Part shown: positions 11,052 to 41,490 of the stretch, piece after piece
Numbering within the stretch: position 1 is the stretch's first letter
Layout: the number at the start of each line of letters is the position of its first letter
Assembly: GCA_963732945.1 (NCBI GenBank)
Contig: CAVTBL010000004.1
Span: 273,864 to 337,863, forward strand
Origin: an uncultured Chloroflexia bacterium
Lineage (GTDB): Bacteria; Chloroflexota; Dehalococcoidia; DSTF01; WHTK01
DNA: 64,000 nucleotides
Direction: 5' to 3'
Notes under the pieces: generated by a model
Databases searched by the model: none
Told to the model about the DNA's origin: nothing
Seen by the model: only the letters and a program-made list of their open reading frames with translations
Translations under genes and position numbers: made by a program

Positions 11052-11114
11052 CGCATAGACATAGGCATACACATAAAGCACGAGAGTCGCGGCTGACGCC
11101 GCGTTAATCTCTGT

Positions 11115-11168
11115 GCCTATGCCTATGCCTATGCCTATGCCTATGCCTATGCCTATGCCTATGCCTAT
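11115..11168. repeat. Perfect hexanucleotide microsatellite (GCCTAT)x9
   Basis: Counted directly. It overlaps the last codons and stop of the gene at 11165-11684. Degenerate inverted copies (ATAGGC-like) lie at 11052-11078. Confidence 0.95.
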
Positions 11169-11684: not shown

Positions 11685-11706
11685 TTCTTGTCTCCTCGTC
11701 TCGCGC

Positions 11707-12240: not shown

Positions 12241-12250
12241 CGCCTGCCTC

Positions 12251-13418: not shown

Positions 13419-13457
13419 AAACGATGCCCTTCCTAAGCGGTGACGTGGTTTCGGTGT

Positions 13458-14383: not shown

Positions 14384-14409
14384 GCCCGTCTCTCCTTCTG
14401 CAGACTGAT

Positions 14410-15346: not shown

Positions 15347-15365
15347 GGCCCCTCCTTCACGGTCG

Positions 15366-15382
15366 ATTTCGTTGTGCGGAAT
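15366..15382. promoter_or_regulatory. Imperfect palindrome ATTTCG-TTGTG-CGGAAT upstream of EthD-C
   Basis: Read directly. It lies 20-36 nt upstream of the TTG start at 15346. Confidence 0.45.
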
Positions 15383-15502
15383 CGGCTTCCAACATCGTAG
15401 ACATGGGGCATCGCCTGTCAATACCCTGATCGCCGTTCCCGTAGCGTCGTGGTCACCGATCGACGTTACAGAAGAAAGATGCTGTCAATTCCGTCCGATT
15501 GC

Positions 15503-25049: not shown

Positions 25050-25223
25050 ATGCAGTTCATCAATTTCATCAAGGATCGAATCTCCGCTCTGTTCACGGAA
25101 GAGTCCGGCCAGGACGGCATCGAGTACCTGCTCGTCATCGGCGGCATCAGCGTGGCCATCATCGTCGCAGCGTTGCCGCGCTCGTTACTGGTGGCTGCCC
25201 GGCGTCGTCACCGGCGTCTGTGA
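25050..25223 (+). CDS. flp: Flp-family type IVb prepilin
   Basis: GGAGGA lies 9 nt before the ATG. It has the Flp motif G|QDGIEYLLVIGGISVAIIV. The Arg-rich C-terminal tail is atypical, so the 3' end may carry an indel. Confidence 0.75.
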   Translation: MQFINFIKDRISALFTEESGQDGIEYLLVIGGISVAIIVAALPRSLLVAARRRHRRL

Positions 25224-25294
25224 AGCAGCTCATCGACGGTATCATACTCCGGCGTCACCGCTTAGCCTAAGCTGGTCGACTAGGGCGGGACTGG

Positions 25295-25525
25295 CTGTTC
25301 AGCCCGCTCAAGGCTACCCGCGCCCTCTTGACGCGACTGCTTCGCTGATCGAGGACGAGACGGTCAGGCCGGCATCGAGTACCTGCTCGCGATGGGCGCT
25401 ATCGCAGTCGTGGTCGCCGGCAGCTCTTGATCGGCGGCTTCGAGGCCATCGTGCGCGGCGTGCTACCGGTGCTCTGCGACGCGGTCGATCCCCTACGCGG
25501 CGGCGGTAACTGTATCAGCTTTTAG
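25295..25525 (+). pseudogene. flp: Second Flp-like prepilin, reading frame broken at least twice
   Basis: GQAGIEYLLAMGAIAVVVAG is readable in one frame. The leader (...LIEDET) and tail (LLIGGFEAIVRGVLPVLCDAVDPL...) are in other frames. There is no clean start codon. Confidence 0.5.
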
Positions 25526-25558
25526 TCGGAAGACCGAACTAGTTCTGGGTTCTGAACA

Positions 25559-26025
25559 ATGATGAGACTTACGAGCATTCGACGACCGGTGCGACGCGGC
25601 ATCAAGGACGAGAAGGGCCAGGCGGCCATCGAGCTGCTGCTCGTCTTTCCCGTCTTCATCGTTGTCGTGCTGCTCGCCGTCGACTTCGGTCTCTGGATGT
25701 ATCAGACCGTAAGCGTCGCCAGCGCGGTTCGCGACGGCGCGCGCTACGCCGCGGTCAACTGCGGCGGCAACCTCCTGCACCGCGAGCGACATCGCAACTT
25801 ACACGGCCAATCACTCCAGCGGCAGCATCGACGCCGCTCATGTTCACGTGAGCTGGGCGGCGAGTCGGCCCGCCGCGGCCGGCGCCAAGGGCAGCCAGGT
25901 CGTCGTTGAGGCCTGCGCGCCCTACTCGATGATCTTCGCCCCGGTCACGTTCTCGACGGGGCTTGCCTCCAGCGACAACATGCGCGTGGAGCAGTCGTTC
26001 TCCTCCACGGCAGGCGGCTCAGTCA
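25559..26025 (+). pseudogene. tadE: TadE-like pseudopilin (pair 2); one frame break and no stop before tadG
   Basis: It has KGQAAIELLLVFPVFIVVVLLAVDFG...VRDGARYAAV. The frame breaks near 25775. The continuation ends ...DNMRVE, as in other TadE copies, but runs on in frame into the next gene. Confidence 0.65.
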
Positions 26026-27346
26026 TGTCCCTGATGCGGCACGCCATGGGCGTAGTGCGCCTGCTCGCCCGGGAGGAATCGGGGCAAACCGCTATTGCGA
26101 TCCTGCTGGTGTTTCTCGGCGTCTTCGCGCTGTGCGGGCTCTCGCTCGATGCCGGCTTCTGGTACTTCGACCATCGCACAGCACAGAACCAGGCAGACTC
26201 GGCGGCGCTGGCCGGTATCCAGGCGCTACCCTCGTCCAGCACGGGTGGGGCGCTCACGGACGCGGTTACCTGGCTGCAGAACAACGGAATCACGTCCGGG
26301 CTGCCAGTCCTCGACCTCGAGCGACTGCAATCGAGATGGCGTCGAACGATATTCGAGTCGTGGTTACGGATGAGATACCAGCGGGAAACCCGGACGGCAT
26401 CTACGACACCGTCCGCGTTTGCATCCGAAGAAATTCTGCCGTACTGCTGAGCGCGCTATCCGGTGTCGGCGAGGCGAGAGTAAGCGCAGCGGCAAAAACC
26501 AAGACCGGCGGCGCAGAAGGATCAACCGTAATGCCCTGGGCGGCGATTCCCTTCGACCTCAACTGCGATGCAATTGGCGAGATGTGCAACGTGGACCTCA
26601 ACGCCAACGGCGTGCTGGACCCCGGCGAATCAGGCGTCTGCACATTCGTCGACTGTCCCTTCGGCATCGACAATCGGCGCCTGTTTTCGCTTAAAGAACG
26701 GGAACCTGAACCAGTGCAATAGCAGCCAGTACTGCCCGGCGGTCCCCATCCAGGCGTGCGGCAACGGCGCGAGTAGCTACCGCGATTGCATCACCGGCGA
26801 CGCCACGAGCTCGCGGTTTCGCAGGTCGGCGCCACAGTCCAGGTCGATACGTTGCAGGGCAACATGGGTGTCAACACGAGCAATCCCCTGGACCAATGGG
26901 CGACCGACAACGGCGACGCTGCCCAAAACTGCGACGTGGCATCGACACCGGACCAGACGCAGGGCGGCCTCGATACCGACGTGATCAACGGCGTGTTGCA
27001 GACCCGGCTCAACGATCCGGCCTGCGACTACCGCAAAGTCGTGCTGGCAATTGTCTGCCAGACGGCCAACGCGAACTGTGTGCCCAACAACGGCAGCAAC
27101 CACCTGCTCGTAGTGGGGCTCGCCGTGTACTACGTGGCCGGCTGGGATCAGAACGCGGCCGCAGGCTCAACTACGCAAGCCTGCACCCACTACAACGGTA
27201 ATAACGTTCCCAACGGAAAGTTCAATTGCGGGGCTGTCTGGGGCTATCTGCTCAAGGGCGAGGACCCGGCAGGTCGATTCAAGCTCGACGAGATCAGCAA
27301 CAACCCGAACCCATTGGCGCCAATAGTCATCGCGCTGGTTGAGTAG
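26026..27346 (+). pseudogene. tadG: TadG-like protein (pair 2); at least three frame breaks
   Basis: It has ESGQTAIAILLVFLGVFALCGLSLDAGFWYFDHRTAQNQADSAALAG. The pieces continue in other frames, with breaks near 26310, 26690 and 26800. The C-terminus is ...PIVIALVE. Confidence 0.6.
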
Positions 27347-27421
27347 ACCTGACGTCGCGTAACACACGACGTCAAAGCGCGTTAGCAAATTAGCAAAACA
27401 AATTCGTCCACGGAGGGACTT

Positions 27422-28234
27422 ATGACGAGCATCAGTCAGGCACAACGCGGAGGGCGCGCCAACAAACGGCAACTCTGGATTGCTGCCGCTCTCGGTCTGC
27501 TCGCGGCGGTCCTCGTCATCGTGTTCCTCAGCAACGCGGGCAGCAAGGACAACAACAGCAGCACCTCCGTAGCGACGGAGGGCGTCATCGTTGCGTCCCA
27601 GCCGATCGCTATCGGCACGCAGATCACCGCCGATATGCTGACCACCAAACAGGTTGCAACCTCGGCTATCGCTTCCGACGCCATACGCGACAAGACTCTG
27701 GCCATCGGGCAGGTCGCCCGCTATCCGATCTCGCGTGGCGACACCCTGAGCACGGGCGAGCTGGTCGCGGCGCCGCAGGTCAAGTCGCTGTCGTTCGAGA
27801 TCCCGCCGGGCCTGCGCGGCATGACCATCCCGGTCTCGATTAACAACACGCCCTCGGCGCTGATCGCCCCCGGCGACTTCGTCGACGTGATCGTCAGCGC
27901 GGACGCCGTGCTGCTCAACGGCAACGTCGTGACGCTGCCGGGCAACAACCAGCAGCAGGCTCGAGGCTCGGCGACGCTCCTGCAGAACGTGCAGGTGCTC
28001 TCCGTCGACCGCAACTTCGCCGACACCGGCGTCGTCTACGACTCCTCGGTCCGCGGTACGCCGCCCGATGCGAAGGACAGCGTCTCCTTCGTCACCCTGG
28101 CTGTAACTCCCGATCAAGCGCAGCTTCTCTGGCTGGCGCAGGACAGCGGCAAGCTCACCATCGTGCTGCGTGCGTTCGGCGATGACAAAGTCGTCACCCT
28201 CACGCCGGACGTCGAGCCGCTGCAGCTTCCTTAG
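27422..28234 (+). CDS. cpaB: Flp pilus assembly protein CpaB/RcpC (SAF domain)
   Basis: It has an N-terminal TM segment, then VIVASQPIAIGTQITADML and a RcpC-type C-terminal region. GGAGGG precedes the ATG. Confidence 0.8.
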   Translation: MTSISQAQRGGRANKRQLWIAAALGLLAAVLVIVFLSNAGSKDNNSSTSVATEGVIVASQPIAIGTQITADMLTTKQVATSAIASDAIRDKTLAIGQVARYPISRGDTLSTGELVAAPQVKSLSFEIPPGLRGMTIPVSINNTPSALIAPGDFVDVIVSADAVLLNGNVVTLPGNNQQQARGSATLLQNVQVLSVDRNFADTGVVYDSSVRGTPPDAKDSVSFVTLAVTPDQAQLLWLAQDSGKLTIVLRAFGDDKVVTLTPDVEPLQLP

Positions 28235-28260
28235 ACATCGCTCGACTGAAAGGCACAATC

Positions 28261-29484
28261 ATGGCCGCGAAATCACGAGTACTGATCATCGACGAAGACC
28301 TCGATAGCCGCGTCGAGACGCGCAAGGCGATTCAGCGCGCGGGCCTGGACAACGCCGGCGAGGTCGGCTTCGGCGCCGAGGCCGTGACCACCGCCAGCGA
28401 AGTGCGCCCCGACGTGCTGCTGATCGCCGTCGAGGAGCCGGTCACGCGCGCGCTGGAGACGGTCGACTCGCTGGCCAACGTGCTGCCCGAGACGCCGATC
28501 ATCTTCTACGCATCCAGCACGGACGCGGACTCGGTACGCCGCGCCGTGATCTACGGCGCCCGCGACTACCTGATCAAGCCGCTGCAGGCCGAGGGCCTCA
28601 AGCAGGCCGTGATCCGCGCCCTCGAGTTCGAAGAGAAACGCCACATGCGCCAGGCGGGGCAGCTCGCATCGGCGCCGGTGCGCGGCACCGTGATCACGGT
28701 CGCGGGCGCCAAGGGCGGCATCGGCAAGTCGGTGATCGCGACCAACCTCGCGCTCGCGTTGCGACAGAAGACGCAGGCCAGCGTCGTCATCGTCGACGCC
28801 GACACGCACTTCGGCGACATCGCGACAATGCTCGACGTGACGCCCACGGTCACGGCCGCCGATCTGCTGCGCGACCTGCCGAAGCTGGACCGCAACAAGA
28901 TCCACGACTACCTCACCGAGGCGCCGCTCGGCGTCTGGGTCCTCGCCGGCTCTCGCGACGAGGACAACGTCTGGGAGGCGGCCGACAAGGACAGCGGTAA
29001 GAAGATCGTCGAGCTCCTGTCGCTCTCGCACGACTTCATCATCGTCGACACGTCCGGTGCCATGGACAGCTTCGTGCGTGAGGTGATCAGCGCCTCGACG
29101 CTGGTGCTCCTGGTTACGACAGGCGAGGTCTCGAGCGTGCGTGATACACGGTCCGCGCTCAACCGCTTGAAGAGTTGGTCGGTGCCGGCCGAGAAGGTCA
29201 AGATTCTCCTCAACCGCGGCGCCCGGGCCGACGGCTTCCAGGTCGCCGACATCGAGAAGAGCCTCGACCGCCCGATCTTCTGGGAGCTACCGCGAGACCG
29301 CGAGGTGGGACGCTCGATTCAGCTCGGCCGCCCCGTCGTTATCGAGAAGCCGGGCACGGCTGCCGCGCGCAACATCACTGCACTGGCTGAGGCGATTGGT
29401 GGCAACGTCAGGACCGCGACGTCCAACGGCCACCGCCCAGGGCTGATGTCTCGCTTCAGCAGAACGAAGCAGGTGGTGGCATGA
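28261..29484 (+). CDS. tadZ: TadZ/CpaE: atypical receiver domain fused to a ParA/MinD-type ATPase
   Basis: It has a REC-like N-terminus (VLIIDED) with Ala at the expected acceptor-Asp position (LLIAVEEP). The deviant Walker A is AGAKGGIGKS. Confidence 0.85.
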   Translation: MAAKSRVLIIDEDLDSRVETRKAIQRAGLDNAGEVGFGAEAVTTASEVRPDVLLIAVEEPVTRALETVDSLANVLPETPIIFYASSTDADSVRRAVIYGARDYLIKPLQAEGLKQAVIRALEFEEKRHMRQAGQLASAPVRGTVITVAGAKGGIGKSVIATNLALALRQKTQASVVIVDADTHFGDIATMLDVTPTVTAADLLRDLPKLDRNKIHDYLTEAPLGVWVLAGSRDEDNVWEAADKDSGKKIVELLSLSHDFIIVDTSGAMDSFVREVISASTLVLLVTTGEVSSVRDTRSALNRLKSWSVPAEKVKILLNRGARADGFQVADIEKSLDRPIFWELPRDREVGRSIQLGRPVVIEKPGTAAARNITALAEAIGGNVRTATSNGHRPGLMSRFSRTKQVVA

Positions 29485-30788
29485 CGTCCTGGCAGACCAT
29501 CCTCCCGCGGGTAGAGCCCGACAGCACCAGCGAGATCGAGGAGGCCGTACACCAGCGTGTGATCCGCGCCGTCAACGATTCCGAGATTCGCGGCCTCGGC
29601 AAGGAGCAGGCGCGGCCCATCGTCGCGGACGCCACGCGGCGTCTCCTCACGGAAGAGTACCCGGCCGTCGTCGGCGACTCGAAGGACGAGCTCGTCACGC
29701 GTATCGTCGATGAGATAACGGGTCTGGGGCCGATCGAAGGGCTGCTGCGCGACCCGAGCGTATCCGAAGTCATGGTCAACGCGCCGGACGAGGTCTACTT
29801 CGAGCGCGACGGCATCATCCACGAGTCCGATGTGCACTTCAGAAACGATGCGCACGTCATGCGCATCGTCGAGCGAATCACGTCGGCGCTCGGTCGTCAT
29901 GTCGACGAAGCGTCGCCTATGGTCGACGCGCGCCTCGAGGACGGCTCACGTGTCAACGTAATCATTCCGCCGCTGGTGCCGCGCAGCGCCGTCCTGACGA
30001 TTCGCAAGTTCCGCGCCGACATGTTCTCCATGAACGATCTCGTGCACGCCGGCACGCTGTCGCGGCAGATGGCGGACTTCCTTGGCGGCTGCGTCCAGGC
30101 GAAGCTCAACATCGTCGTCTCCGGTGGCACCGGTACCGGTAAGACAACGCTGCTGAACGCCCTTTCAGCCTTCATCCCGATGCGAGAACGCATCATCAGC
30201 ATCGAGGACCCGCTCGAGATGCAGCTTCAGCAGAAGCACGTCATCGCCATGGAAGCGCGTCCGCCTTCCGTCGAAGGCGCCGGCGAGGTGACGCAGCGCA
30301 TGCTCCTGCGCAACGCGCTGCGCATGCGCCCGGACCGCATCATCGTCGGCGAGGTTCGTGGCTCCGAGGCCTTCGACATGATGCAGGCGATGAACACCGG
30401 TCACGAGGGCTCGCTGACCACGGTTCACGCCAACTCACCGAGAGACGCCCTCGCACGCATCGAGAACATGGTCCTGATGGCCGGCTTCGAGTTGCCCGTG
30501 GCGGTGATTCGCGAGCAGATGGCGTCGGCGCTCCACGTCGTGATCCATCTCTCCCGCCTCTTCGATGGCAGCCGTAGGGTCGTCAACATCAGCGAAGTGT
30601 CCGGCATGGAAGGCAACGTGATCACGATGCAGGACATTTTCCTGTTCCATCAGGACGACATCACGTCGGACGGGCGCGTCGTTGGCGATCTGAGGCCGAC
30701 GGGTTTGCGTCCGCACTTCGTCGACCGTCTCAAGTCATTCGGTATCGAGTTCAGCGACGACATCTTCGGTGTCGCGAGGTGGACCTGA
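29481..30788 (+). CDS. tadA: TadA/CpaF secretion ATPase
   Basis: It has Walker A ([10 protein letters not shown]), Asp/His boxes and [12 protein letters not shown]. An ATGA overlap links it to tadZ. Confidence 0.9.
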
Positions 30789-30789
30789 C

Positions 30790-31746
30790 GTGGATCCTTC
30801 TATCCTCATAGCCGGTGCCGCCGCGGCGGGTGCTGTGTTCGTCGCAACGCTTACGCTGCAACGCAACGCCAGCACGAGCCGCGAGCTGATTCAGTCCCGG
30901 ATAAGCTCCGATGGCTCGCCGAACATCGCACAGCCGCGGCTCCAGCTTGCGATCCCACGCATGGCTTCACTGTCGCAGCGGGGTCAGCGACTTGCGCGCG
31001 ACCTCGATAGGGCCGGTGTAGCGCTGACCGTGAGCGAGTACATGATGGTGCGGACCGCCGTCGCGGTGTTGGGCTCCATCGTTGCCCTCCTGCTGGCCTC
31101 CTCATTCTCCGCGGGCATGGCAGTCAAAATCGGTGCGGCCGTCTTCGGCTTCATCTTTGGCTACTGGTTACCGGGGCAGTACATCAACGGTCGTAAGGCA
31201 CGCAGATTGAAGCGCATCGAAGATGAGCTGGTCGAGGTCATGGTCTCGATGGCGAAGTCGCTGCGCGCCGGGGTCGGCCTGACGCAGGCTCTCGAGTATG
31301 CCGGGCGCGATGCTCCCGACCCCCTGGGCAGCGAGCTCCTGCGCGTGGTGCGCGAGCTACAGCTCGGTGCCGATGTTGAAAACGTGTTCGAGGAGATGAA
31401 TGCTCGCATCGCCAGCCCCGACCTCGAGATCGCCTCGGCGGCGATCATTATTCAGCGCAGAGTCGGCGGCAACCTCTCCGAAGTCCTCACTAATGTGGCG
31501 AACACGATTCGAGAGCGAAGAGCGATTCGTAACGAGCTGAACGCGATTACCGCGAAGCAGCGCCTGCAGGGCAACGCCTCGGCTTTGATTCCTGTATTTG
31601 TGGCCGTCTTCTTTTTCTTCGTGAACCATGACACGGCCAAGCTGCTGTTCACCACGACGGCCGGCAACATCGCGCTCGCGGTCGGCATCTTCTTCGAGGT
31701 CGCCGGCCTGTGGATGGTGCGCCGCTTTGGAGCAATCGAGGTCTGA
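30790..31746 (+). CDS. tadB: TadB (T2SS-F-like inner-membrane platform protein)
   Basis: It has a T2SSF domain pattern (LVEVMVSMAKSLRAGVGLTQAL) and terminal TM helices. The GTG at 30790 follows AGGTGGA. Confidence 0.8.
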   Translation: MDPSILIAGAAAAGAVFVATLTLQRNASTSRELIQSRISSDGSPNIAQPRLQLAIPRMASLSQRGQRLARDLDRAGVALTVSEYMMVRTAVAVLGSIVALLLASSFSAGMAVKIGAAVFGFIFGYWLPGQYINGRKARRLKRIEDELVEVMVSMAKSLRAGVGLTQALEYAGRDAPDPLGSELLRVVRELQLGADVENVFEEMNARIASPDLEIASAAIIIQRRVGGNLSEVLTNVANTIRERRAIRNELNAITAKQRLQGNASALIPVFVAVFFFFVNHDTAKLLFTTTAGNIALAVGIFFEVAGLWMVRRFGAIEV

Positions 31747-31747
31747 T

Positions 31748-32665
31748 ATGCCGCTGCTGATTGGACTCCTGACCTTTGTCGCCGTGATGCTGCTCGTCAG
31801 CTACGTGGCCCAGCCTCGTCAGGATGAGGTTCGGCGCCGCATCCTGGCGGGCGGCTCCGGCGGTGCAGAATCGAGCGAGCCGTCCAGTGCGTCATTCGGC
31901 AAGAGGCTGATCCGCCCGATGTTCAGCTGGCTCGGCTCCGGCTTCGGCAAGCTGCTGCCCCAACACATGATTCAGAGCCTCGAGACCACGCTGGTCCAGG
32001 CCGGCGAGCCCATGGCGCTGTCGAGCTTTCTCGCAATCTGGGGACTGGTCGCATCGTTGGCAGCGCTGGCCGTCTTCTGGCTCCTTACCGCGCAGGCCGA
32101 CTGGGGCTTCGGGCGCCTGTTCGTTTTGAGCGCCCTGATTCTCGTGTATTCGATTGGCACGCCGTACCTGCTGCTCAGGCGCCGCGCCGGCAAGCGCAAG
32201 AAGCGCATCGAGCGGGCCCTGCCGGATGCCCTCGATCTGCTCCTCACGTGCATCGAAGCCGGTCTGGGCGTGGACGCTGCCTTCGCGCTCGTGGCGCAGA
32301 GGTCGACGGGTCCGCTGGCCGAGGTGCTTACGGAATACCTGAGACTCGTCGGGTTCGGGCAGTCACGCCGCGACGCTCTCGAATACATCAGCCAGCGCTC
32401 CGGCGCTCCCGGGCTGAATCGTCTGGCCGCGGTAGTGGCGCAGGCCACGGCTGTCGGAACCACCATGGGCGACGTGCTGCGCGTTCAGGCAGCCGAGCTG
32501 CGTGAGGCTCGCCGCCTCAAGGCGCAGGAGGCGGCCGCAAAAGCACCGATCTGGATGACGATTCCGCTGGCGCTGTGCTTCATGCCGGCCATGGGCGCCG
32601 TCATCGTGGTGCCTTCCATTCTTCATCTCTTGAATTCGATAAAGGACCTGGGGTTAAGAGCATGA
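31748..32665 (+). CDS. tadC: TadC (T2SS-F-like platform protein)
   Basis: It has LPDALDLLLTCIEAGLGVDAAF plus TM helices. The ATG lies 1 nt after the tadB stop. Confidence 0.8.
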   Translation: MPLLIGLLTFVAVMLLVSYVAQPRQDEVRRRILAGGSGGAESSEPSSASFGKRLIRPMFSWLGSGFGKLLPQHMIQSLETTLVQAGEPMALSSFLAIWGLVASLAALAVFWLLTAQADWGFGRLFVLSALILVYSIGTPYLLLRRRAGKRKKRIERALPDALDLLLTCIEAGLGVDAAFALVAQRSTGPLAEVLTEYLRLVGFGQSRRDALEYISQRSGAPGLNRLAAVVAQATAVGTTMGDVLRVQAAELREARRLKAQEAAAKAPIWMTIPLALCFMPAMGAVIVVPSILHLLNSIKDLGLRA

Positions 32666-33228
32666 CTTACGCAACTGAAGCCAGAAGCATGACCGGGCGA
32701 GACTCGACGTTCTACGCCTATCTGGCGGTTCCAGTACTGGAGCTGCTCGCACTCGTCGTCATGACGTTCCTGCCCGATCGCGTTGCCGCGGCGCTGCTCA
32801 CCGAAGTCACGGTTGTGTTGCTGCTGTACCTGGGGCTGATCGACTTTCTCACCCTCAAAGTGCCGAACCTGATCGTGTACCCATCGATTGCGTTCGTGCT
32901 GATCGGCACGGCGCTGGTCAAGATGAGCGCGCTCGATAATGCGCTGCTTGGTGGAGGGGCGCTGCTCGGCATCATGTTCGTTCTCGCAATCATCGGCCGC
33001 GGTTCGATGGGCATGGGCGACGTCAAGTTCGCCTGCCTGCTGGGCTGCGCGCTGGGACCGATTGTTGGCGTGCTCGCGCTGGCGTCCGGCTTCGTCGTCG
33101 GCGCAGTAAGCGCGATCGTGCTGCTGGTTCTGCACCTGAAAGGCCGAAAGGATTCGGTGCCGCTCACGCCTTATCTCGCGATAGGCGGGATCGTCTGGAT
33201 CCTGCTCATCGGCACGCTGGTGAAGTAG
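32662..33228 (+). CDS. tadV: A24-family prepilin peptidase (TadV/CpaA type, no methyltransferase domain)
   Basis: The two catalytic Asp contexts are LIDFLTLKVPN and GMGDVKF. It is polytopic and has an ATGA overlap with tadC. Confidence 0.85.
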   Translation: MTYATEARSMTGRDSTFYAYLAVPVLELLALVVMTFLPDRVAAALLTEVTVVLLLYLGLIDFLTLKVPNLIVYPSIAFVLIGTALVKMSALDNALLGGGALLGIMFVLAIIGRGSMGMGDVKFACLLGCALGPIVGVLALASGFVVGAVSAIVLLVLHLKGRKDSVPLTPYLAIGGIVWILLIGTLVK

Positions 33229-33238
33229 AGGTCACACG

Positions 33239-33631
33239 TTGAAAACCGTACGCGTCGAGCTGCCAGACGGATCGTTGCTGTGCAACGCCGAGCTGGCGAA
33301 CAACCTCTGGACACGTGGTGTAGGCCTGCTGGCCCGAAAAGGGCTCGATCCAGACAAAGGCCTGCTGATTGAGCCCTGCACGTCCGTGCACACCTGGTTC
33401 ATGCTCTTCGCCCTCGACGTCCTGTTTCTCGATAACGAAGGCACGGTGGTCAAGGTGAAAACGCTAAAGCCGTTCTGGTTCTCCTTCGGAGGCAAGGGCG
33501 CGAAACGAGTTCTCGAAATCAAGTCCGGCTCCGCGGCCGCCCACGCAGTGAAGAAGGGCGATCGCCTCCTGATCTCCGAGATCGATGCGGCCGCGGCCGG
33601 CGCCTCGAGGACGGCAGCGGAGCATGACTGA
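33239..33631 (+). CDS. DUF192-family protein
   Basis: A TTG start lies 10 nt after tadV. RGVGLLARKGL...GLLIEPCTSVHTWFMLFALDVLFLD..G.VV...L.P......GAKRVLEIKSG matches the DUF192 pattern from memory. Confidence 0.65.
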   Translation: MKTVRVELPDGSLLCNAELANNLWTRGVGLLARKGLDPDKGLLIEPCTSVHTWFMLFALDVLFLDNEGTVVKVKTLKPFWFSFGGKGAKRVLEIKSGSAAAHAVKKGDRLLISEIDAAAAGASRTAAEHD

Positions 33632-33721
33632 GCTATCGCCTCGGGTTTTCGAGGATGTGAGAGCTAAACGTCGAGCCGGTCTGAAGTAGTCGGACCCTCG
33701 TAACAAGAAAGCAAGGATGCT

Positions 33722-36700
33722 ATGAATCTATCTCGGCTCAAATTCCTGGCGATCGCGCTTGGCGCTTTCGTAGTTGCGTTCGCCTTCGCGGGCACCGGAA
33801 CAGCTTCCAACCCGACTACAGCCGTGGCGGCGCCGACGGTAAACATCCCGTTGAACAACGACACTGCCGGCGCAGCGCAGGGCTGTCCGACCGACGGCGC
33901 TGCCTACTGGCACTTCGTCATCACGCCGAACAGCGGTGGCTCGTCTTTCGTGACATTCCACCTCAATCTTGGCGATGTGAGCACGTATGACACGAGCTCT
34001 TACGTGCCGAACGGGGCCCAGACAGACAACGTCTTCGTACAGGTTCCCGCCGGGAAGACGCTTACATCGCTGGACAATACTGGCAGCAGCGCCGACGTCA
34101 CATGGGACGGCACTCACGCGCCCAGCAAGTTCACGCTCAGCGGTACCTGCGCGGGTTCCGCCCCCAGTCCCGACGTTGGCGTGGCCAAGAGCGACAACAC
34201 CTCGCACAGCGTTACCGCCGGCGGGACCTTCAACTGGACCCTTACGATCACGGTGACCAACGGCCCGACTTCGGCGACGGTGCAAGACACGATCCCGAGC
34301 GGCTTCGCCATCGGCAGCGTTACCGACAAGAACAGCGGCAACGCCGACGAGTCGAGCATCGTGTGCAATACGTCGACACAAACCGTGACCTGCTCGCTCA
34401 ACGCTACGCCCAGTGGCACCTACACCGTGACGATCCCGGTAACGGCGCCGACGGGCACCCCGACGACGAACTGCAAGCAGTACACGAACACCGCCAACAT
34501 CACGAACGGCGGCGGTAGCAACACGCAGAATGACACCGCCAGCGATTCCGTCACGGTGCTGTGCCCCGCGCAGCCCGACGTCGCGATTGCCAAGAGCGAC
34601 AACACATCGCACAGCGTTCACGCCGGCGGGACGTTCAACTGGGTGCTGACGATCACCGTGACCAACGGCCCGGCTTCGGCGACCGTGCAGGACACGGTCC
34701 CGAGCGGCTTCGCCATCGGCAGCGTCACGGACAAAAACAGCGGCAACGTCGACGAGTCCAGCATCGTCTGTAACACGGCGTCGCAGACTGTCACCTGCAC
34801 GCTGACCAGCACTGCGACCGGTACCTACACCGTGACGATCCCGGTTACGGCGCCGGACGGCTCGCCTGGCTCCGAGTGCACCAGCTTCCAGAACACGGCC
34901 TCGATTACCGCGGGCGGCGGCACCAACGCCAGCAACGACTCGGCCAACGACTCCGTGACCGTGACCTGCCCCGACGTCGGCGTTAGCAAATCGGACGACA
35001 CTGGCGGCACGGTTCAGGCAGGCGGCTCGTTCAACTGGCTCGTAACGGTCAGCGTGACCAACGGTCCCGCTTCCGGGACGATCCAGGACACGGTGCCCGC
35101 CAACTTCATCATCGGAACGCCCGGCGCCGACAGCGGCACCATTGGCTGCAGCAAGCTCGGTCAGGTCGTCACCTGCACCTTGACCAATACTCCGACCGGC
35201 AGTCACACGATCACGATTCCTGTCACGGCGCCGAGCAGCACCGCGCTTGCCGCCTGCGCCAGCTATGAGAACGACGTCTCGATCACGGCCGGCGGCGGCA
35301 CGAACGCCAACAACGACTCGGCGAGCGACTCCGTCACCGTGACCTGCCCCGACGTCGGCATCAGCAAGACGAACAACGTCAACGGCAGCGTCGCCGCCGG
35401 TGGCAGCTTCAACTGGGTCCTGACGGTCAGCGTGACCAACGGTCCGGCTTCGGCGACCGTCCAGGACACGGTCCCGGCTGGCTTCAGCATCGGCAGCGTC
35501 ACCGACAACGCCGCGAGCATCGACTGCGGTACGGCGTCTCAGACCGTCACGTGCACGTTGACAGACACCCCGACCGGCACCTACACCGTGACGATTCCGG
35601 TCACGGCGCCCGGCTCGGACCCGTCCGACAACTGCAAGGCGTATGAGAACGACGCCTCGATAACGTCGGGCGGCGGCACGAACGGCAACAACGACAGCGC
35701 GAGCAACTCGGTGACCGTGCTCTGTCCCGCGCAGCCCGACGTCGGCATCAGCAAGACCGACAACACTCAGGGCAGCGTTCATGCTGGCGGCGGCTTCGAC
35801 TGGACACTGACCGTGACCGTGACTAACGGCCCGGCTTCGGCCACTGTCGTCGACAACGTGCCCGCGGGCTTCACGATCGGTAGCGTCACGGACGCCAACA
35901 GCACGCCTGCCGACGAGGCGACGATCGGCTGCAGCACGAGCCTAGCAGACCGTCACCTGCACGCTGACCAGCACGCCGACTGGTACCTATACGATCACGA
36001 TTCCGGTCACGGCGCCCGCGGCCACGGTCGCGGACGCCTGTGCACCGCACGAGAACGTCGCTAACGTCACGGTCGGCGGCGGTACCAACGCGAACAACGA
36101 CAGCGCTAACGACGCCGTCACGGTGGTTTGCCCGGACGTTGGCGTCAGCAAGAGCGACGACACGCAGGGCAGCACTCACGCCGGCGGCTCGTTCAACTGG
36201 CTCGTCACGATCAGCGTGACCAACGGCCCGGCTTCCGCCACGGTAGAGGACACGGTCCCTGCGAACTTCGCGATCGGTAGCGTGAGTGCAAACGACGCGA
36301 GCATCGACTGCAGCAACGTATCTCAGACCGTTACCTGTACGCTGACCAACACTCCGACCGGTACGTACACCGTCACGATCCCGGTGACCGCCCCCGCCGC
36401 CAGCGTCGACGGAGCCTGTGCCAACCACGAGAACGACGTCGTGGTCACTTCCGGCGGCGGCACCAACGCCAACAACGACTCGGCCAGCGACACCGTTGGC
36501 GTCATCTGCCCCGATGTCGGCGTGTTCAAGAGCAACGACGCGGGCGGCTCCATCACCGCCGGCGGCTCGTTCACCTGGACGGTCACCGTTGCCGTCACCG
36601 ACGGCCCGGCCTCGGGCACTGTGCAGGACACGGTCCCGGCCGGCTTCGCTATCGGCAACTTCAGCTCCAACGAGGCGACGATCGACTGCGGCGCGGCCGG

Positions 36701-37947
36701 CGCAGGTCGTGACGTGTACGCTGACCAACACGCCGAATGGCAGCTACGCCGTGTCGATCCCGGTGACCGCGCCCAGCGACAACCCGAATACGAACTGCAC
36801 GCAGTACAACAACACCGCCACGATCACCGATGGCGGTGGCACCAGCAGCGCCAACGACTCGGCCAGCGACCCGATGACGGTCGTTTGCCCCGGCCAGGCG
36901 GTGCTCTCCATCGTCAAGTCGGGTGACGCAACCGTCACGACCGGCGACACCGTGAGCTACGGCGTGACCGTAACTAACACCTCGGCCCTCGGCGCCAACA
37001 GCGTCGTGGTTACGGACGACCTGCCGAACAGCCTCACCGGCGTCACGGCGACCTACGACGTCGACCCGACGACAGCGGGCGGCACCGGGAGCTGCAGCGT
37101 CGGGGTGGGCAACAGCGTGACATGTAATGTCGGCGCCCTCGCGGCCAGCGACGGCAACACGAGTGCGCCTGAGGCGGACGTGGTCCAGGTCTCGATCAGC
37201 GCAACCGTCACCGGCTGCGCCACGCTGACCAACCAGGCGACCGTCACCTACTCCACGGACGGCAGCGCTCAGCCGCCGAACGTCGTCGACAGCAACATCG
37301 TCACGACCGACGTGACCTGTGGCTCGATCACGATCGTCAAGAACGCGGTGCCGAACAGCACGCAGGACTTCGGTTTCAGCGGCGATCTCGGCGCCTTCAC
37401 GCTCGACGACGACGGTAACAACAACAACGCGTTCTCGAACACAGTGGTGTTCAACGACCTCGGCATCGACACCTACGTCGTTACTGAGAACGTGACCGCC
37501 GGCTGGCTAGTCAACTCGATTACGTGCAGCGACGGCAGCGCCACCAGCGTGACTACCCGCTCCGCGGTGATTCAGCTTGCCGGTGGCGAAGACGTTACGT
37601 GTACGTTCGTCAACGTAACCGACCCGGGGACAATCCCGCCCGTTACGCCTCCGTTCACGCCGCCGGTGACACCGCCGCTGGTCGTGCCGCCGCCTGCCAA
37701 CGTCACCACGGTGACGACGCTGCCGCTGATTGCACAGGTGCAGGGAGCGGTCTCGGTACCTTCGACGCAGCCGACCACGCCGGGGCTGATCTCGGAGGTC
37801 GAGGGCGTACGCACGCTGCCGGGCACCGGTACGGGCGGCTACCTCAATTCGGAGAGCTCGTCTGGTCCCGCTAGCTGGCTCGTTGGGCTGCTTGCGGCCG
37901 TCGGCGTTAGCTTCCTCCTCCTGCGCGTCCGTAGGGGCGCGCGGTGA
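33722..37947 (+). pseudogene. Wall-anchored adhesin of about 1,400 aa: signal peptide, N-terminal domain, 7 tandem DUF11-like modules, canonical DUF11 module, prealbumin-like domain, Pro-rich stalk, LPGTG sorting signal; two frame breaks
   Basis: The signal peptide is MNLSRLKFLAIALGAFVVAFAFA. The modules begin CPDVG[VI]SK. The C-terminus is LPGTG followed by a hydrophobic segment and RVRRGAR. The frame shifts near 35945 and near 36700. Confidence 0.8.
34169..36890 (+). repeat. Seven tandem coding repeats of about 378-405 bp (about 130-aa modules)
   Basis: Module starts (CCC/CCG GAC/GAT GTY) lie at about 34169, 34574, 34970, 35348, 35735, 36132 and 36510. The next, divergent module starts near 36888. 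Confidence 0.85.
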
Positions 37948-38609
37948 GGAGCTGGCGCGGCTTCTGGCTGAGCGTCTTCGCGCTGCTGGTCGCCAGCTTC
38001 GCGCTGGGTGCGGGCCTGCTCGTCTGGCAGGGAGACAGCTCCAGTTCGAAGCCCGAGAGCACCAGCGCCAGCACTGAAGTAACGCGGCCGGCGGCGAAAC
38101 CGTCGCAGCCGGCCGCGCCGAATCAGGCGCCGGCGGGCTCGACTAGTGCGGCCGCTCCGGTCGACCTGCACGCGATCTCGCGGCTCGTCGTACCGGGTGT
38201 CGGCATCGATGCGCCGGTCGTGACGCTGGGCGTCAACTCGGACGGCGTCATGCAGTCGCCGGCCACTCCGACCGATGTCGGCTGGTACAACTTCTCGTCG
38301 CTCCCCGGCGGTGGCAGCAACATCGTCCTGTCCGGGCACGTCGACTACGTGAACTACGGCCCGGCGATCTTCTGGAACCTGCGCGAGCTCAAGCCAGACG
38401 ACGTCGTACAGGTCGTTCTGGACAACGGCTCGGTCGTCAATTATCACGTGACGACAGTGACGACCTACGATGACCAGACGGCGCCGGTACAGCAGATCAT
38501 CGGTGCGACGCCCGCGGAGACGATCACGATGATCACCTGCACCGGCACCTTCGATACGCAGTCGCGGGAATACGACAAGCGTCTCGTGGTCCGCGCCGTC
38601 AGGACCTGA
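37944..38609 (+). CDS. Sortase (class E/F-like) transpeptidase
   Basis: The GTG overlaps the adhesin TGA (GTGA). It has an N-terminal TM segment, catalytic His (LSGHVD), ITMITCTG (the TLxTC equivalent) and a C-terminal Arg (RLVVRA). Confidence 0.85.
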   Translation: MRSWRGFWLSVFALLVASFALGAGLLVWQGDSSSSKPESTSASTEVTRPAAKPSQPAAPNQAPAGSTSAAAPVDLHAISRLVVPGVGIDAPVVTLGVNSDGVMQSPATPTDVGWYNFSSLPGGGSNIVLSGHVDYVNYGPAIFWNLRELKPDDVVQVVLDNGSVVNYHVTTVTTYDDQTAPVQQIIGATPAETITMITCTGTFDTQSREYDKRLVVRAVRT

Positions 38610-38629: not shown

Positions 38630-39082
38630 CTAAGCGACGCGCTGAGTCTCGCCGCAAACAGGGCAGAGGCCGTCCGCGGTTGGAGCGTACTCCGCGCCGC
38701 ACAGAGGGCAGGCCGGGACGCGTTCGAGTGACTGACTGCGGCGGCGTTCTCGATATGCCGCGAGGTCGCTGACCTCAGCCTCGACTGATGACGCTTGGCC
38801 CGATGCGCGCGTCGAGAGCACGGCGTGCAGTCGCGGTCCCTGCCTGACCATGAGAACACCCAGCGCGATCAATCCCGCGTAGACCAGGAGCAGGCCGAGC
38901 GTCACAGAGTCGAAGACATCTGCCTCGAGAACTCGAACGGCGCCGTAGACCAGAAAGAAGACCGTAGAGACCGCGAGCAGCCAGCCTTCGACTACCAGCG
39001 GACTGAGAGACGTCTCACGGTCGTTCTTTGGACGCCGCCGAAACAGTCCCGAAATGTCGATCACATTCGTCTTCTCTTGCAT
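38630..39082 (-). CDS. Membrane protein with C-terminal zinc-ribbon (CPLCG...CPVCG)
   Basis: The ATG at 39082 lies 6 nt after GGAGG. It has two TM helices and a Cys4 ribbon at the C-terminus. No family was recognised. Confidence 0.5.
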   Translation of the reverse strand: MQEKTNVIDISGLFRRRPKNDRETSLSPLVVEGWLLAVSTVFFLVYGAVRVLEADVFDSVTLGLLLVYAGLIALGVLMVRQGPRLHAVLSTRASGQASSVEAEVSDLAAYRERRRSQSLERVPACPLCGAEYAPTADGLCPVCGETQRVA

Positions 39083-39241: not shown

Positions 39242-40810
39242 CTATTCGACGAGCTTGTAGCCCTGCGTATCAGTGTCGATGTAGCGCGTAAACTTGATCT
39301 GTATGTCCTGTGACCCGCCCTGCGAGAACGTCTTCGTGATGATCTGTACGGAGCCAAAGTTGCCGCCGCCCGTGACCTGCATGTTTGCGTTCGGGAAGTA
39401 CATGATGCCGGTCGTGGTCCAGGCCGAGCCGCTGCTCGATCCGGCGAACTTGAACTGCTGGCTACACGAATCGTCTTGCCAGAACAGCATGTTCAAGTAG
39501 CCCGTGAGCGAAGTCGAGTGCGAAACGGTCGGTGCGGCCAGCTTGAGTACACCACTGCCTGTGATGCTCATGCCCTGGCACGCCTGTTCCGTCGATTTGT
39601 TGGCGTAGGGGTCAGATGTGTTGAAGATCGTGACGCCGGTCGCCGTCGGGCAGTTGTCCGAGGCGGTCGCGGGGCCGCAGATGTTGCCGCTTTGATAGCT
39701 GAAGCCGCCGCCGTTGCCGTTGTGGTCCGCACCCGCGAACACGTAGATCCCGGGTTGGAAGTGCACAGTCTGGCTGGTGCTGTTGATCTTCAGCCCGCCG
39801 TAATAGGTACCCGGCTGCAGCGTGACGTCGCCAGCGCCGGTGAGAGAGGTGATCGTCGGGTTCGTAGCGGCGGACCGTTGGTTCGCCGAGCAGGGGATCG
39901 CGTGGTTGCCACAGGCAGTTAGTGAAATCGGGACGCAGTTGGTAGGCGTCGTAGCGCTGAAGTCCGAGCACCCTACCGGTCGCGGGCAGTACTCAGCAGA
40001 CTGGTTACCGGGCGGACTGCATGACAGTGGATCCGGGAATAACGGCGCTTTTGTCGGCTTCGGAGACGCTGTCGAATTGCTCGGGACGCTCCAGCTGCCG
40101 CGGCTGTTGTAGTCCAGCTTGCAATCGATGACGTCGCCCGCTTTGTCATAGCAGGTCTGGGCTGTGACCACGCTGCCGCCGTTCTGTGCTGCAGAGATGC
40201 CGGTACAGCTACCGCCGGTCGTTGCCGCCGAGTCGACCACGGCACCACCGCCGGTGATCGTGATGTTGCTGCTGGTTGTAAACGCGTCGCACTGCGTCTT
40301 ATCCAGCACGATGAGGGCGTAGTTGCGCTTGAGCGGCGTTGCGCCGCCCACCGCCCGCGCTTCGACCCGGGCAGTCTTCACGCCGAGAATGCGGATGAAG
40401 ACCGTGGGGTCGTTTCGGGTGATTCGAACTTCGATGTATGAGTGGTCGCCGATGTGCTTGCCGGAAGTCGGCGGCAGGTTCACCGTCACTTCGCTGTTGG
40501 GGCAGGTGCCGGTGCCGAGGCCGTTCTTCTCGGCGTAAGTGCAGGCGATCTGCTTGGCCTGGTCTTCGACACCGTCAGTGCCGAAGTTGTACATCAGGTA
40601 CTGTGCGCCTGCCAGCGCGGCGGCATCCGCGGTGCGCTGTCGTTCGGTCCGATGCAGCATCAGCAGGCCGACATCGAGTGCGAGCCCGGCGAAGCCTATG
40701 ATGAGCGGCGTCAGAAGACCCGCGATGATGATGATCTGGCCTCGCTCACCCCAGCGTGCAGCGAATATTAGCCTCAGCTTCGAACCCCAACCGTCAGCGC
40801 TGCGCCTCAT
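39242..40810 (-). CDS. tadG: TadG-like protein (pair 3), 522 aa, Cys-rich ectodomain
   Basis: It has ERGQIIIIAGLLTPLIIGFAGLALDVGLLMLHRTERQRTADAAALAGAQ, the TadG N-terminal signature. Confidence 0.75.
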   Translation of the reverse strand: MRRSADGWGSKLRLIFAARWGERGQIIIIAGLLTPLIIGFAGLALDVGLLMLHRTERQRTADAAALAGAQYLMYNFGTDGVEDQAKQIACTYAEKNGLGTGTCPNSEVTVNLPPTSGKHIGDHSYIEVRITRNDPTVFIRILGVKTARVEARAVGGATPLKRNYALIVLDKTQCDAFTTSSNITITGGGAVVDSAATTGGSCTGISAAQNGGSVVTAQTCYDKAGDVIDCKLDYNSRGSWSVPSNSTASPKPTKAPLFPDPLSCSPPGNQSAEYCPRPVGCSDFSATTPTNCVPISLTACGNHAIPCSANQRSAATNPTITSLTGAGDVTLQPGTYYGGLKINSTSQTVHFQPGIYVFAGADHNGNGGGFSYQSGNICGPATASDNCPTATGVTIFNTSDPYANKSTEQACQGMSITGSGVLKLAAPTVSHSTSLTGYLNMLFWQDDSCSQQFKFAGSSSGSAWTTTGIMYFPNANMQVTGGGNFGSVQIITKTFSQGGSQDIQIKFTRYIDTDTQGYKLVE

Positions 40811-40830
40811 CTGCCTACTCCGCCGGCGTC

Positions 40831-41307
40831 CTACTCGGACCGCATCCTGGTCGTCGACGTGAAGGTGATCGAGTCCGATCCGCCGAGGATCCTCACGATG
40901 CCGCCGAGCGGCGTGATGAAGTTGTAGGTGTACTGCGCCGTCACGACCACTTCCGATCCGGTGGAGCAGGGCGTGGTTGCCTGGATAACGTTGGCGGCTG
41001 TGAGGCCCAGTGCGCTGCCGGAGTCGACTACCTGCGCGATGGCGGCGTTGGAGGCGGTCGTCGTGTCATCGCCCTCGCAGACCACGCCGACTCGGGCGCC
41101 TTCACGCGCGGCGTTGGTCAGCATGATGTCTGCACGCAGCGCCATGCCGAAATCGATGATCCCAAGGACTACTACCACGAATACGGGAATAACGACGGCG
41201 AATTCGACCATTGACTGGCCGCGTTCCCTGCGTCGTCTGGTCTGGGTTCGGTCGGAATTCTGGCGTCCTGGGCGTGCGTCCGGTGACGCAACGTGATCGA
41301 TGCCCAT
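40831..41307 (-). CDS. tadE: TadE-like pseudopilin (pair 3)
   Basis: The ATG follows AAGGGAGGG. It has ERGQSMVEFAVVIPVFVVVVLGIIDFG...NAAREGAR and the C-terminus ...RMRSE. Confidence 0.75.
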   Translation of the reverse strand: MGIDHVASPDARPGRQNSDRTQTRRRRERGQSMVEFAVVIPVFVVVVLGIIDFGMALRADIMLTNAAREGARVGVVCEGDDTTTASNAAIAQVVDSGSALGLTAANVIQATTPCSTGSEVVVTAQYTYNFITPLGGIVRILGGSDSITFTSTTRMRSE

Positions 41308-41490
41308 CTCGCCCTCCCTTATGCATATTCGGCAGACGTGCCGAAACACGAAGGGCGTGAGACATCAAATCGCCAGATTAGGCGCTACGTAGAGAGTATC
41401 GGCCGCATCCCAGCGAACCTTTAGTTATTTGACCTATCTTCTTCAAAACTCGATTTCGTCGGCTGGCGGATCGATGGGGCGAGGCAGATG

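Follow-up and report, generated by a model that had tools for sequence, protein, structure and literature searches.

The 64-kb window (the whole 64,000-nt stretch of DNA analysed here) carries thirteen plus-strand genes in the order flp, flp', tadE, tadG, cpaB, tadZ, tadA, tadB, tadC, tadV, DUF192, adhesin and sortase, an order proposed in an earlier sequence-only reading and borne out by open reading frames (ORFs) and, from tadE onward, by Pfam. Five of the thirteen (flp, flp', tadE, tadG and the adhesin gene) are not intact ORFs in the window. The pilin gene flp1 (25050-25270) encodes a G/QDGIEY processing motif, has at least two frame changes in the part encoding the C terminus, and was recognized by three-frame translation and comparison with Flp homologues of relatives. 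The second, flp2 (25328-25525, boundaries approximate), encodes a G/QAGIEY motif and also has at least two frame changes; the frame-shifted flp ORFs gave no Pfam match. Two pseudopilin genes follow: tadE (25559-26040, 3' end approximate; Pfam TadE, 50.8 bits), with a frame change near 25770 at a (GGC)n run, and a tadG-like gene (26025-27346; Pfam Tad PF13400, hit from 25848), with frame changes near 26330, 26690 and 26810. The machinery genes are cpaB/rcpC (27422-28234; Pfam RcpC, 80.4 bits), whose product is 98% identical in amino acids to that of a congeneric sister genome, tadZ/cpaE (28261-29484), with a receiver-like domain and a ParA/MinD ATPase domain (Pfam Response_reg and ParA/CbiA), the secretion ATPase gene tadA (29481-30788; PF00437 T2SSE, 219 bits against a cut-off of 24.9), the platform protein genes tadB (30790-31746) and tadC (31748-32665; both Pfam T2SSF PF00482), and tadV (32662-33228), encoding a 188-aa A24 prepilin peptidase that lacks a methyltransferase domain (Peptidase_A24 PF01478, 38.5 bits). 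The junctions are as the sequence-only reading gave them: gaps of 75 and 26 nt flank cpaB, in keeping with the range claimed upstream of tadZ; ATGA overlaps join tadZ to tadA (29481-29484) and tadC to tadV (32662-32665); tadA and tadB, like tadB and tadC, are 1 nt apart; DUF192 begins 10 nt after tadV; 90 nt (33632-33721) separate DUF192 from the adhesin gene; and the adhesin and sortase genes overlap by GTGA at 37944-37947.

All components by which a Tad/Flp system is recognized are present, namely TadA, TadB with TadC, TadZ with CpaB, an A24 peptidase, and Flp and TadE/TadG leaders, in which the processing motifs SG/QDGIEY, DG/QAGIEY, KG/QAAIEL and SG/QTAIAI can be read directly. By analogy with established Tad biology, TadV would cleave the G/XXXXEY leaders of Flp, TadE and TadG, and TadA, TadB, TadC and TadZ would polymerise Flp. 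The rcpA/cpaC secretin and tadD, stated earlier to be missing, have no corresponding domain in any ORF of 22.7-43.6 kb, and in the tad loci of relatives tblastn with the window proteins turned up the secretin-less set of genes only. Secretin and TadD are diderm-only features, and their absence fits a monoderm Tad variant. TadA relatives at 58-68% identity come exclusively from Dehalococcoidia/Chloroflexota, a phylum in which Tad pili have already been reported (PMC7332563), and the same secretin-less Tad core occurs in the rpl island of Rhodococcus equi (PMC2947987). The locus shares with the monoderm Tad/Flp (type IVb/IVc) loci of R. equi (rpl), Bifidobacterium (tad) and Chloroflexota a G/XXXXEY Flp, TadE/TadG, CpaB, TadZ, TadA/B/C and an A24 peptidase without a secretin, but here and in most Dehalococcoidia relatives the set is extended by a terminal DUF192 gene and by VWA-FHA and ECF-sigma companions.

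The DUF192 gene (33239-33631; Pfam DUF192, 69.6 bits) encodes a protein without a signal peptide and closes the tad operon of Dehalococcoidia as its conserved last gene. It directly follows tadC/tadV in 35 of the 64 informative loci of relatives, and in eight more it lies farther downstream in the flank retrieved. Of 31 loci scored for the gene that comes next, 19 show a convergent one, and unrelated genes come after DUF192 in four loci (L001, L003, L004 and L111) and in a JGI contig. Judged by gene order, DUF192 is the conserved 3' boundary of the Dehalococcoidia tad operon. Its only structural matches are 3PJY and 3M7A, structural-genomics entries of unknown function, and a literature search for DUF192 or COG1430 in a Tad context found no mention. 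On the other side, the minus-strand gene at 22770-24221, divergent from flp, encodes a protein with Pfam VWA and FHA domains; its homologues adjoin tad loci in most relatives, and this synteny marks it as a conserved partner of the tad loci of Dehalococcoidia. Relatives also carry an ECF sigma gene upstream of flp on the same strand.

The remaining two plus-strand genes form a unit of a different kind. The adhesin gene (33722-37947) was described in the sequence-only reading as a single giant gene; it lies in three frames (33722-36064, then about 35946-36926, then about 36703-37947) that result from two +1 shifts, and once the 1-nt insertions near 35945 and 36702 are removed it encodes 1,407 aa, a size that is large but not giant. 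The corrected product has a signal peptide, a 110-aa N-domain, seven repeats of 126-135 aa, a DUF11 domain, a SpaA_4 domain, a proline-rich stalk and a sorting signal, LPGTG...WLVGLLAAVGVSFLLLRVRRGAR, with a hydrophobic stretch and an RVRRGAR tail; this C terminus is conserved in the sister genome, and no other protein of the window carries a sorting signal. The N-domain is rare, with four database homologues, all in unrelated contexts. Its AlphaFold model (pLDDT 64.7) had no significant Foldseek match in the PDB (best E = 0.012, TM ≤0.37); the best of these non-significant rows show a weak likeness to carbohydrate-binding beta-sandwiches.

The sortase gene (37944-38609; Pfam Sortase PF04203, 81.8 bits) encodes a hydrophobic N-terminal segment, as expected of a membrane anchor, and a His-Cys-Arg triad (H132, C199 and R213, with TLxTC) that is invariant across 20 homologues. 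We call it class-F-like: NCBIfam class F (NF033748) scores highest at 115.4 bits, which is under the 166-bit cut-off, class E gives 44 bits, classes D and C are also far lower, and a 77%-identical homologue carries the NCBI name 'class F sortase'. The GTGA overlap suggests translational coupling, by which adhesin and sortase form one surface-anchoring cassette. In this scheme the adhesin would be exported by Sec and cut by the sortase at LPGT|G, and the sortase would then link it to the wall. Wall-synthesis genes were not found within the 64-kb window. Peptidoglycan is missing in some Dehalococcoidia, so that wall anchoring here is putative.

Downstream of the cassette the strand changes. A small membrane protein that ends in a CxxC...CxxC motif is encoded convergently (38630-39082, minus strand) and conserved in the sister genome; it is followed by a second tadG-like gene, tadG2 (39242-40810; Pfam Tad), and a second tadE-like gene, tadE2 (40831-41349; Pfam TadE), both on the minus strand and convergent on the sortase gene. 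Two further minus-strand genes head this tadE2/tadG2 operon, one for an anti-sigma-like membrane protein with a GN-rich tail, recognized from its translation (41491-42960), and one for an ECF-type sigma factor (42957-43595; Pfam Sigma70_r2/r4). Genes related to tad therefore lie on both sides of the adhesin-sortase cassette.

Some ten frame changes are spread over flp1, flp2, tadE, tadG and the adhesin gene, and none lies in the genes from cpaB to DUF192 or in the sortase gene. Their restriction to these genes within the locus, and the fact that the sister genome is also broken in flp-tadG, would suit a decaying locus with pilin, pseudopilin and adhesin genes as genuine pseudogenes beside machinery genes that remain intact. 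We consider such decay improbable. The positions of the frame changes differ between the two genomes and are mostly unshared, and the sister genome has 1-nt insertions of its own in tadB and tadC, both of which are intact in the window. Synonymous codon changes against the sister genome strongly exceed nonsynonymous ones in TadE (13:2 and 22:6), in TadG (24:4 and 6:2) and over the conserved TadE/TadG blocks as a whole (89:27), so that TadE and TadG, on these codon counts, are under purifying selection. The sorting signal and sortase are conserved. Breakage also extends to genes that have nothing to do with pili: unrelated metabolic genes for cytoplasmic enzymes on the minus strand at 11100-15400 are similarly broken, and other contigs, with accessions from the same ENA range, carry fragmented housekeeping genes. 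Because the breaks are not shared with the sister genome, TadE and TadG show purifying selection and unrelated metabolic genes are broken too, the frame breaks in flp, flp', tadE, tadG and the adhesin gene are most likely long-read assembly errors and not gene decay. The TadE and TadG homologues of L001 each align to the window in two frames. At both adhesin shifts the window has a loop of 13 nt, against 12 nt in the corresponding sister-genome repeats and in the intact repeats of the window itself. Programmed frameshifting or phase variation in the adhesin gene was rejected, as the sites are not homopolymers and the matching sister repeats are in frame. The raw count of alignment gaps that are not multiples of three was dropped as a measure of frameshifts, since many are compensating pairs in divergent sequence. 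We note that the frameshifts are unevenly spread, clustering in flp-tadG and at 11.1-15.4 kb, and that a plain random-error model fails to explain this.

The physical adjacency of tad operon and cassette, on which the sequence-only reading was built, is reproduced in the congeneric sister genome (L086/L110), a different species with the same order of tad genes, DUF192, adhesin and sortase. At the nucleotide level its tad core is 87% identical to that of the window and its cassette 78%. That the two were joined by misassembly might be suspected of a window on a long (853-kb) metagenomic contig that bears marks of indel error, but the independent 288-kb contig of the sister species has the same junction, spacer and downstream convergent operon, which effectively refutes a chimera and leaves it exceedingly improbable.

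In the loci surveyed outside this genus the linkage did not recur. A sortase hidden Markov model (HMM) that recovered all 30 sortase-bearing loci used as positive controls detected no sortase in 80 TadA-centred Dehalococcoidia loci, 41 of which reach at least 7.9 kb downstream of tadA, and none in L111, the closest outgroup with DNA available to the scan. The linkage is absent from the two closest outgroups, in which the operon ends at DUF192 and unrelated genes come next. Seen from the sortase, there were no tad genes near homologues at 30-61% identity, none in 23 metagenome sortase loci and no tad linkage in three other sortase contexts (L082, L083 and L085). The adhesin-sortase pair of L083 has no tad genes beside it, and in one metagenome-assembled genome (MAG) this pair and a tad locus (L016) lie on separate contigs; L081 also has such a pair, on a contig that begins inside the adhesin gene. 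The adjacency of tad operon and cassette probably arose within this genus. The sequence-only reading had proposed a fusion of pilus machine and anchored adhesin, and had named lack of the linkage in related genomes as evidence against it; with one congeneric genome as the sole repeat and 0/80 TadA-centred loci carrying a sortase, that proposal is largely unsupported.

From gene content and synteny, we favour, with some confidence, two self-contained and individually known adhesion modules placed side by side and not a new fused machine, the frameshifts being most likely assembly errors. The first would be a monoderm-type secretin-less Tad/Flp operon running from flp through flp, tadE, tadG, cpaB, tadZ, tadA, tadB, tadC and tadV to DUF192, and the second a surface-anchoring cassette of an LPGTG stalk adhesin and its class-F-like sortase. 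Set between the tad operon and the convergent ECF-sigma/tadE2/tadG2 operon, the cassette would make this a local, lineage-specific adhesion neighbourhood.

The spacer between the modules (33632-33721, plus strand) contains a 7-bp hairpin at 33678-33696 without a U-tract and an AAGGA ribosome-binding site. Both elements fall in the final 60 nt ahead of the adhesin ATG, a segment that aligns with the sister genome at high conservation, higher than that of the 3' end of DUF192. Neither the spacer (fold z-score -0.08) nor the sortase 3' region folded better than shuffled sequences. A scan of 24.2-39.4 kb for consensus promoters and terminators found no more sites than in shuffles and none in the spacer; such scans use Escherichia coli-type signals and say little for Chloroflexota. 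As the outgroup DUF192 3' region likewise has no recognisable terminator, the terminator test is uninformative. Searches for a promoter motif common to the upstream regions of flp, the adhesin gene, both ECF sigma genes, tadE2, tadE3 and others returned chance-level matches only. Rfam gave no family at the gathering threshold in the whole window and nothing meaningful in the spacer or upstream of flp or the adhesin gene, and on the latter two grounds we take a c-di-GMP riboswitch to be absent. On this conservation, the adhesin gene is probably served by a conserved leader or promoter region of its own. Since the spacer holds no terminator in the consensus scan, read-through from the tad operon is possible and may add to adhesin expression.

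Such read-through is central to the alternative of an extended operon, in which the Tad transcription unit of this genus has taken in the cassette so that Flp, acting at long range, and the anchored adhesin, acting at short range, are made together. Two-stage attachment of this kind is plausible, and the genes are co-directional across a 90-nt gap with no E. coli-type consensus terminator, the sister genome shares both gene arrangement and spacer, the cassette is flanked by Tad pseudopilin genes, and proteins with DUF11/CARDB or SpaA domains occur at the same tad end in other lineages. Against it stand the missing linkage in the 80 TadA-centred loci and both close outgroups, the cassette that stands alone in L083, the lack of a common promoter motif upstream of flp and the adhesin gene, and the conserved 60-nt leader with its hairpin, which suggests separate control. 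The large surface proteins of the other clade are convergent and hence not co-transcribed. We regard capture into the Tad unit as rather doubtful.

Large surface proteins built of beta-sandwich repeats also adjoin the 3' end of the tad operon in two other Dehalococcoidia lineages, namely a six-locus clade, whose DUF11/CARDB proteins are encoded convergently, and L019, with a SpaA-domain protein. These cases hint at a non-random partnership. A broader proposal would be that Dehalococcoidia Tad loci recurrently recruit beta-sandwich-repeat surface proteins at their DUF192 end, with pili and stalk adhesins as partners, and that here tad read-through makes them one co-regulated two-stage unit; on present gene order we hold this to be unlikely and offer it tentatively. 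Three apparently independent cases lie behind it, namely this genus (co-directional, with its own sortase), the six-locus DUF11/CARDB clade and L019.

The sequence-only reading knew of no description of such an arrangement; a similar one exists. On type II linear plasmids of Cutibacterium acnes, a PT-repeat surface protein and an SrtE-family sortase are encoded directly upstream of tad, which the authors read as an insertion (PMC5696575). Both cases have a monoderm tad locus adjoining genes for a secreted repeat surface protein and a sortase, but the C. acnes genes lie upstream and not downstream of tad, are plasmid-borne, encode another sortase class and an unrelated substrate, and belong to another phylum. 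Sortase-substrate pairs of R. equi behave as small mobile 'srt islands' (PMC2947987). Like these islands and the housekeeping class F/E sortases of high-GC monoderms, the cassette couples a sortase gene to a single LPXTG substrate; unlike them, its sortase falls under the NCBIfam class F cut-off (115 against 166 bits) and its substrate has a rare N-domain.

These observations carry a caution that indels in long-read MAGs can disguise or fragment the variable surface genes that draw interest. They document that some Dehalococcoidia combine Tad machinery of the monoderm type with an LPGTG protein and a class-F-like sortase, a content in keeping with a monoderm envelope, provided that there is a wall for anchoring. 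DUF192, a family without known function, gains a testable context as the conserved terminal gene of these Tad operons. If the two modules do prove to be one regulated unit, a type IV (Tad) fibre and a sortase-anchored adhesin would act in concert for attachment, in a class of Chloroflexota that is uncultured and little studied.

The genes between 25050 and 38609 all lie on the forward strand and follow the order given in the sequence-only reading, with Pfam backing the assignments from TadE onwards. Two flp genes are followed by TadE (from 25559), a Tad/TadG-like gene (from 25848), RcpC/CpaB (27422-28234), TadZ with receiver plus ParA domains (28261-29484), TadA (T2SSE, 219 bits; 29481-30788), tadB (T2SSF; 30790-31746), tadC (T2SSF; 31748-32665), TadV (Peptidase_A24; 32662-33228) and DUF192 (33239-33631). 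The tight junctions described from sequence were also recovered, with ATGA overlaps at tadZ/tadA and tadC/tadV, 1-nt gaps at tadA/tadB and tadB/tadC, 10 nt between tadV and DUF192, 90 nt between DUF192 and the adhesin, and a GTGA overlap of adhesin and sortase. Secretin and TadD are absent, as had been stated, and the accompanying premise that secretin-less tad loci occur in monoderms agrees with the literature, where such loci are well documented (PMC2947987, PMC7332563), as are Tad pili of Chloroflexota. From what is established for these families, TadV would process Flp, TadE and TadG, and TadA, TadB, TadC and TadZ would build the fibre across one membrane.

Comparison with related loci places the end of the tad operon at DUF192. 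The best relatives of TadA (58-68% identity) are all Dehalococcoidia/Chloroflexota MAGs, and a core of cpaB, tadZ, tadA, tadB and tadC is present in all 80 TadA-centred loci. Of the 64 loci with enough flank, 35 have DUF192 immediately after a co-directional tadC or tadV, and 8 more have it elsewhere downstream (fetched flank up to 10 kb). The gene 3' of DUF192 runs in the opposite direction in 19 of 31 loci scored, or is unrelated: glycine cleavage genes in relative L001, VWA-FHA in L003 and CAP in L004, where DUF192 is itself fused to an FHA domain. VWA-FHA and ECF sigma factor genes are common upstream of flp in relatives, which carry a single ECF sigma gene 5' of flp and co-directional with it. 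In the two closest outgroups (CpaB 61% and 59%) the order is exactly ECF, flp, flp, tadE, tadG, cpaB, tadZ, tadA, tadB, tadC, tadV, DUF192, after which come an acyltransferase or ETF genes; the tad operon therefore ends at DUF192. In Dehalococcoidia tad operons DUF192 (COG1430, function not known) is the conserved 3'-terminal gene. The copy in the window lacks a signal peptide, and a literature search found no paper on DUF192 with Tad pili.

Downstream of DUF192 lies a repeat protein, the adhesin (33722-37947, +), with bMG10-like, DUF11 and SpaA_4 Pfam matches, followed by a sortase assigned by Pfam (37944-38609, +). The adhesin is read in three frames: the initial ORF (33722-36064) stops, the repeat resumes in a second frame to 36926, and a third frame runs from ~36703 to 37947. 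Both shifts are +1 and fall within one Cys-x4-Gln loop of the 378-nt repeat, which measures 13 nt at the shift sites vs 12 nt in five intact copies. With one base deleted per site, the protein has 1,407 aa and comprises a signal peptide, a 110-aa N-domain, seven repeats of 126-135 aa, a DUF11/isopeptide-type domain, a SpaA_4 domain, a proline-rich stalk and a sorting signal (LPGTG, a hydrophobic stretch and RVRRGAR), the only such signal in the whole 64 kb. The shift sites (35930-35946 and 36687-36703) are two repeat units apart, a few bases 3' of a CGATCG motif; this positional coincidence has a chance probability of ~3%. The N-domain (33800-34170, residues ~30-148) carries the motifs PLNNDTA, YWHFVITPN and QTDNVFV and is rare, with 4 homologues in a 5.8-billion-protein collection, mostly stand-alone proteins of 130-210 aa; its predicted beta-sandwich had no significant match in a PDB comparison. 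The sortase has catalytic residues H132/C199/R213 and scores 115 bits against the class F model, below its 166-bit cut-off, and 44 bits against class E. Judging from these families, the adhesin would leave the cell via Sec and be cleaved at LPGT/G, and the class-F-like sortase would join it to the wall, presuming that a peptidoglycan wall is present.

The linkage of tad genes, adhesin and sortase is narrowly distributed. Neither tblastn with the adhesin and sortase against the 80 TadA-centred loci (41 of which reach >=7.9 kb past tadA) nor a sortase HMM applied to these loci and to the close outgroup locus L111 gave a match; the HMM, built from 120 class-F-type sortases, recovered 30/30 sortase-bearing control loci, down to 30% identity. 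A 77% sortase homologue also forms an adhesin-sortase pair with a 4-nt overlap, on a contig that begins inside the adhesin and continues into unrelated genes. Tad genes were near none of three homologues at 51-61% identity: one follows a SpaA-type protein (L083), with the tad locus of that MAG on a separate contig (L016), one is alone and one lies within a four-sortase array. Nor did 23 metagenome sortase loci (30-54% identity) have neighbouring tad genes. The full linkage recurs only in a congeneric sister genome, reached through the sortase's 90% cluster (ERZ25039495 contig_8870, 288 kb; loci L086 and L110), which repeats the tad genes, DUF192, a 92-nt spacer, adhesin, sortase and the convergent operon. 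DNA identity with the window, itself part of an 853-kb contig (NCBI, ENA), is 87% in the tad core and 78% from the adhesin to tadE2. The sister also has a paralogous copy of the adhesin N-domain (L086, 16182-16583). Since solely a congeneric genome repeats the arrangement, the linkage is real but shallow.

The gene content read from sequence is correct, but broken reading frames went unnoticed there: the adhesin, flp genes, tadE and tadG all change frame. There is one change in tadE (~25770), three in tadG (~26330, 26690 and 26810) and at least two in each flp gene. Tracing the frame by codon usage across all 64 kb revealed a second cluster at 11.1-15.4 kb on the minus strand, in EthD-like, MetE-like and glyoxalase genes (11100-15400) that are tandemly duplicated and unrelated to tad. 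Taken with the flp-tadG cluster, it speaks for local consensus errors in the source assembly rather than uniform noise. A perfect intergenic hexanucleotide repeat, (TGCCTA) x 9.5, lies at 11114-11170. Frame changes in the sister are mostly at other positions: its adhesin has two shifts and its flp-tadG region many at sites other than those in the window, the repeats matching the window's two adhesin shift sites are in frame, and tadB and tadC, intact in the window, carry single-base insertions. Between the two genomes, synonymous:nonsynonymous codon differences in TadE/TadG, counted per frame segment, are 89:27 in conserved blocks and 122:84 overall, and this synonymous excess indicates that both have been under purifying selection. 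Split genes for glutamine synthetase, CofD and complex I also occur on other contigs of the same ENA accession range. Errors of assembly or consensus calling are the most likely source of the breaks; for their clustering in variable surface genes, strain heterogeneity is a possible cause. The tadE break coincides in window and sister with one (GGC)n run (window ~25770, L110 ~8349), where the window has a single additional base and the sister has two, hinting at either a systematic error or a site prone to slippage.

Scans of the spacer between DUF192 and the adhesin (33632-33721) gave neither a consensus promoter or terminator nor an Rfam element, and its predicted folding does not exceed that of shuffled sequence. 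The 60 nt 5' of the adhesin ATG are better conserved between window and sister than the DUF192 end and hold a 7-bp hairpin without a U-tract (33678-33696), in which a G-to-A change keeps pairing (U-G to U-A). This suggests that the adhesin has a leader or operator to itself. Convergent on the sortase are, first, a small zinc-ribbon-like membrane protein and then a second tadG-like/tadE-like pair (39242-41349, -), in a unit (39242-43595, -) headed by genes for an ECF sigma factor and for an anti-sigma-like protein whose tail is long and GN-rich. With the tad operon upstream and this tadE/tadG operon convergent downstream, the adhesin-sortase cassette sits between two Tad-related transcription units. 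A third tadE/tadG-like pair (5745-7471, -) brings the window's total to three, and a further ECF sigma gene lies at 50199-50810 (+).

Large surface proteins also occur at the same end of other tad loci. In a six-locus clade (L018, L038, L050, L055, L057 and L058; mutual TadA identity 81-90%), a 900-1,400-aa DUF11/CARDB protein with PT linkers and a TSP3/dockerin-like C-terminus lies just downstream of DUF192 on the minus strand and converges on it, and in L019 the gene after DUF192 encodes a SpaA-domain protein (13535-15130). These proteins have no homology to the window adhesin at E < 1e-5, and no sortase is near them. That this end of the tad operon adjoins a large repeat surface protein in three lineages may be more than chance. 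Upstream of tad in L018, L050, L057 and L060, small minus-strand proteins (about 1.8-4.1 kb in locus coordinates) carry an LPSTG-, LPASG- or LPTSG-like motif followed by a hydrophobic stretch, with no sortase within 10 kb; the motifs could be sorting signals or coincidental.

Among known systems, R. equi has small islands of sortase-substrate pairs (PMC2947987), and C. acnes plasmids carry a surface protein and sortase inserted directly beside the tad locus (PMC5696575), so that in both these plasmids and the window a surface protein and sortase adjoin tad genes. The physical adjacency first read from sequence stands, being repeated in the sister genome, whereas its interpretation as a fused or novel system is not supported, given the shallow linkage and the published analogue. 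Each module belongs to a known kind, and their adjacency is a lineage-specific arrangement.
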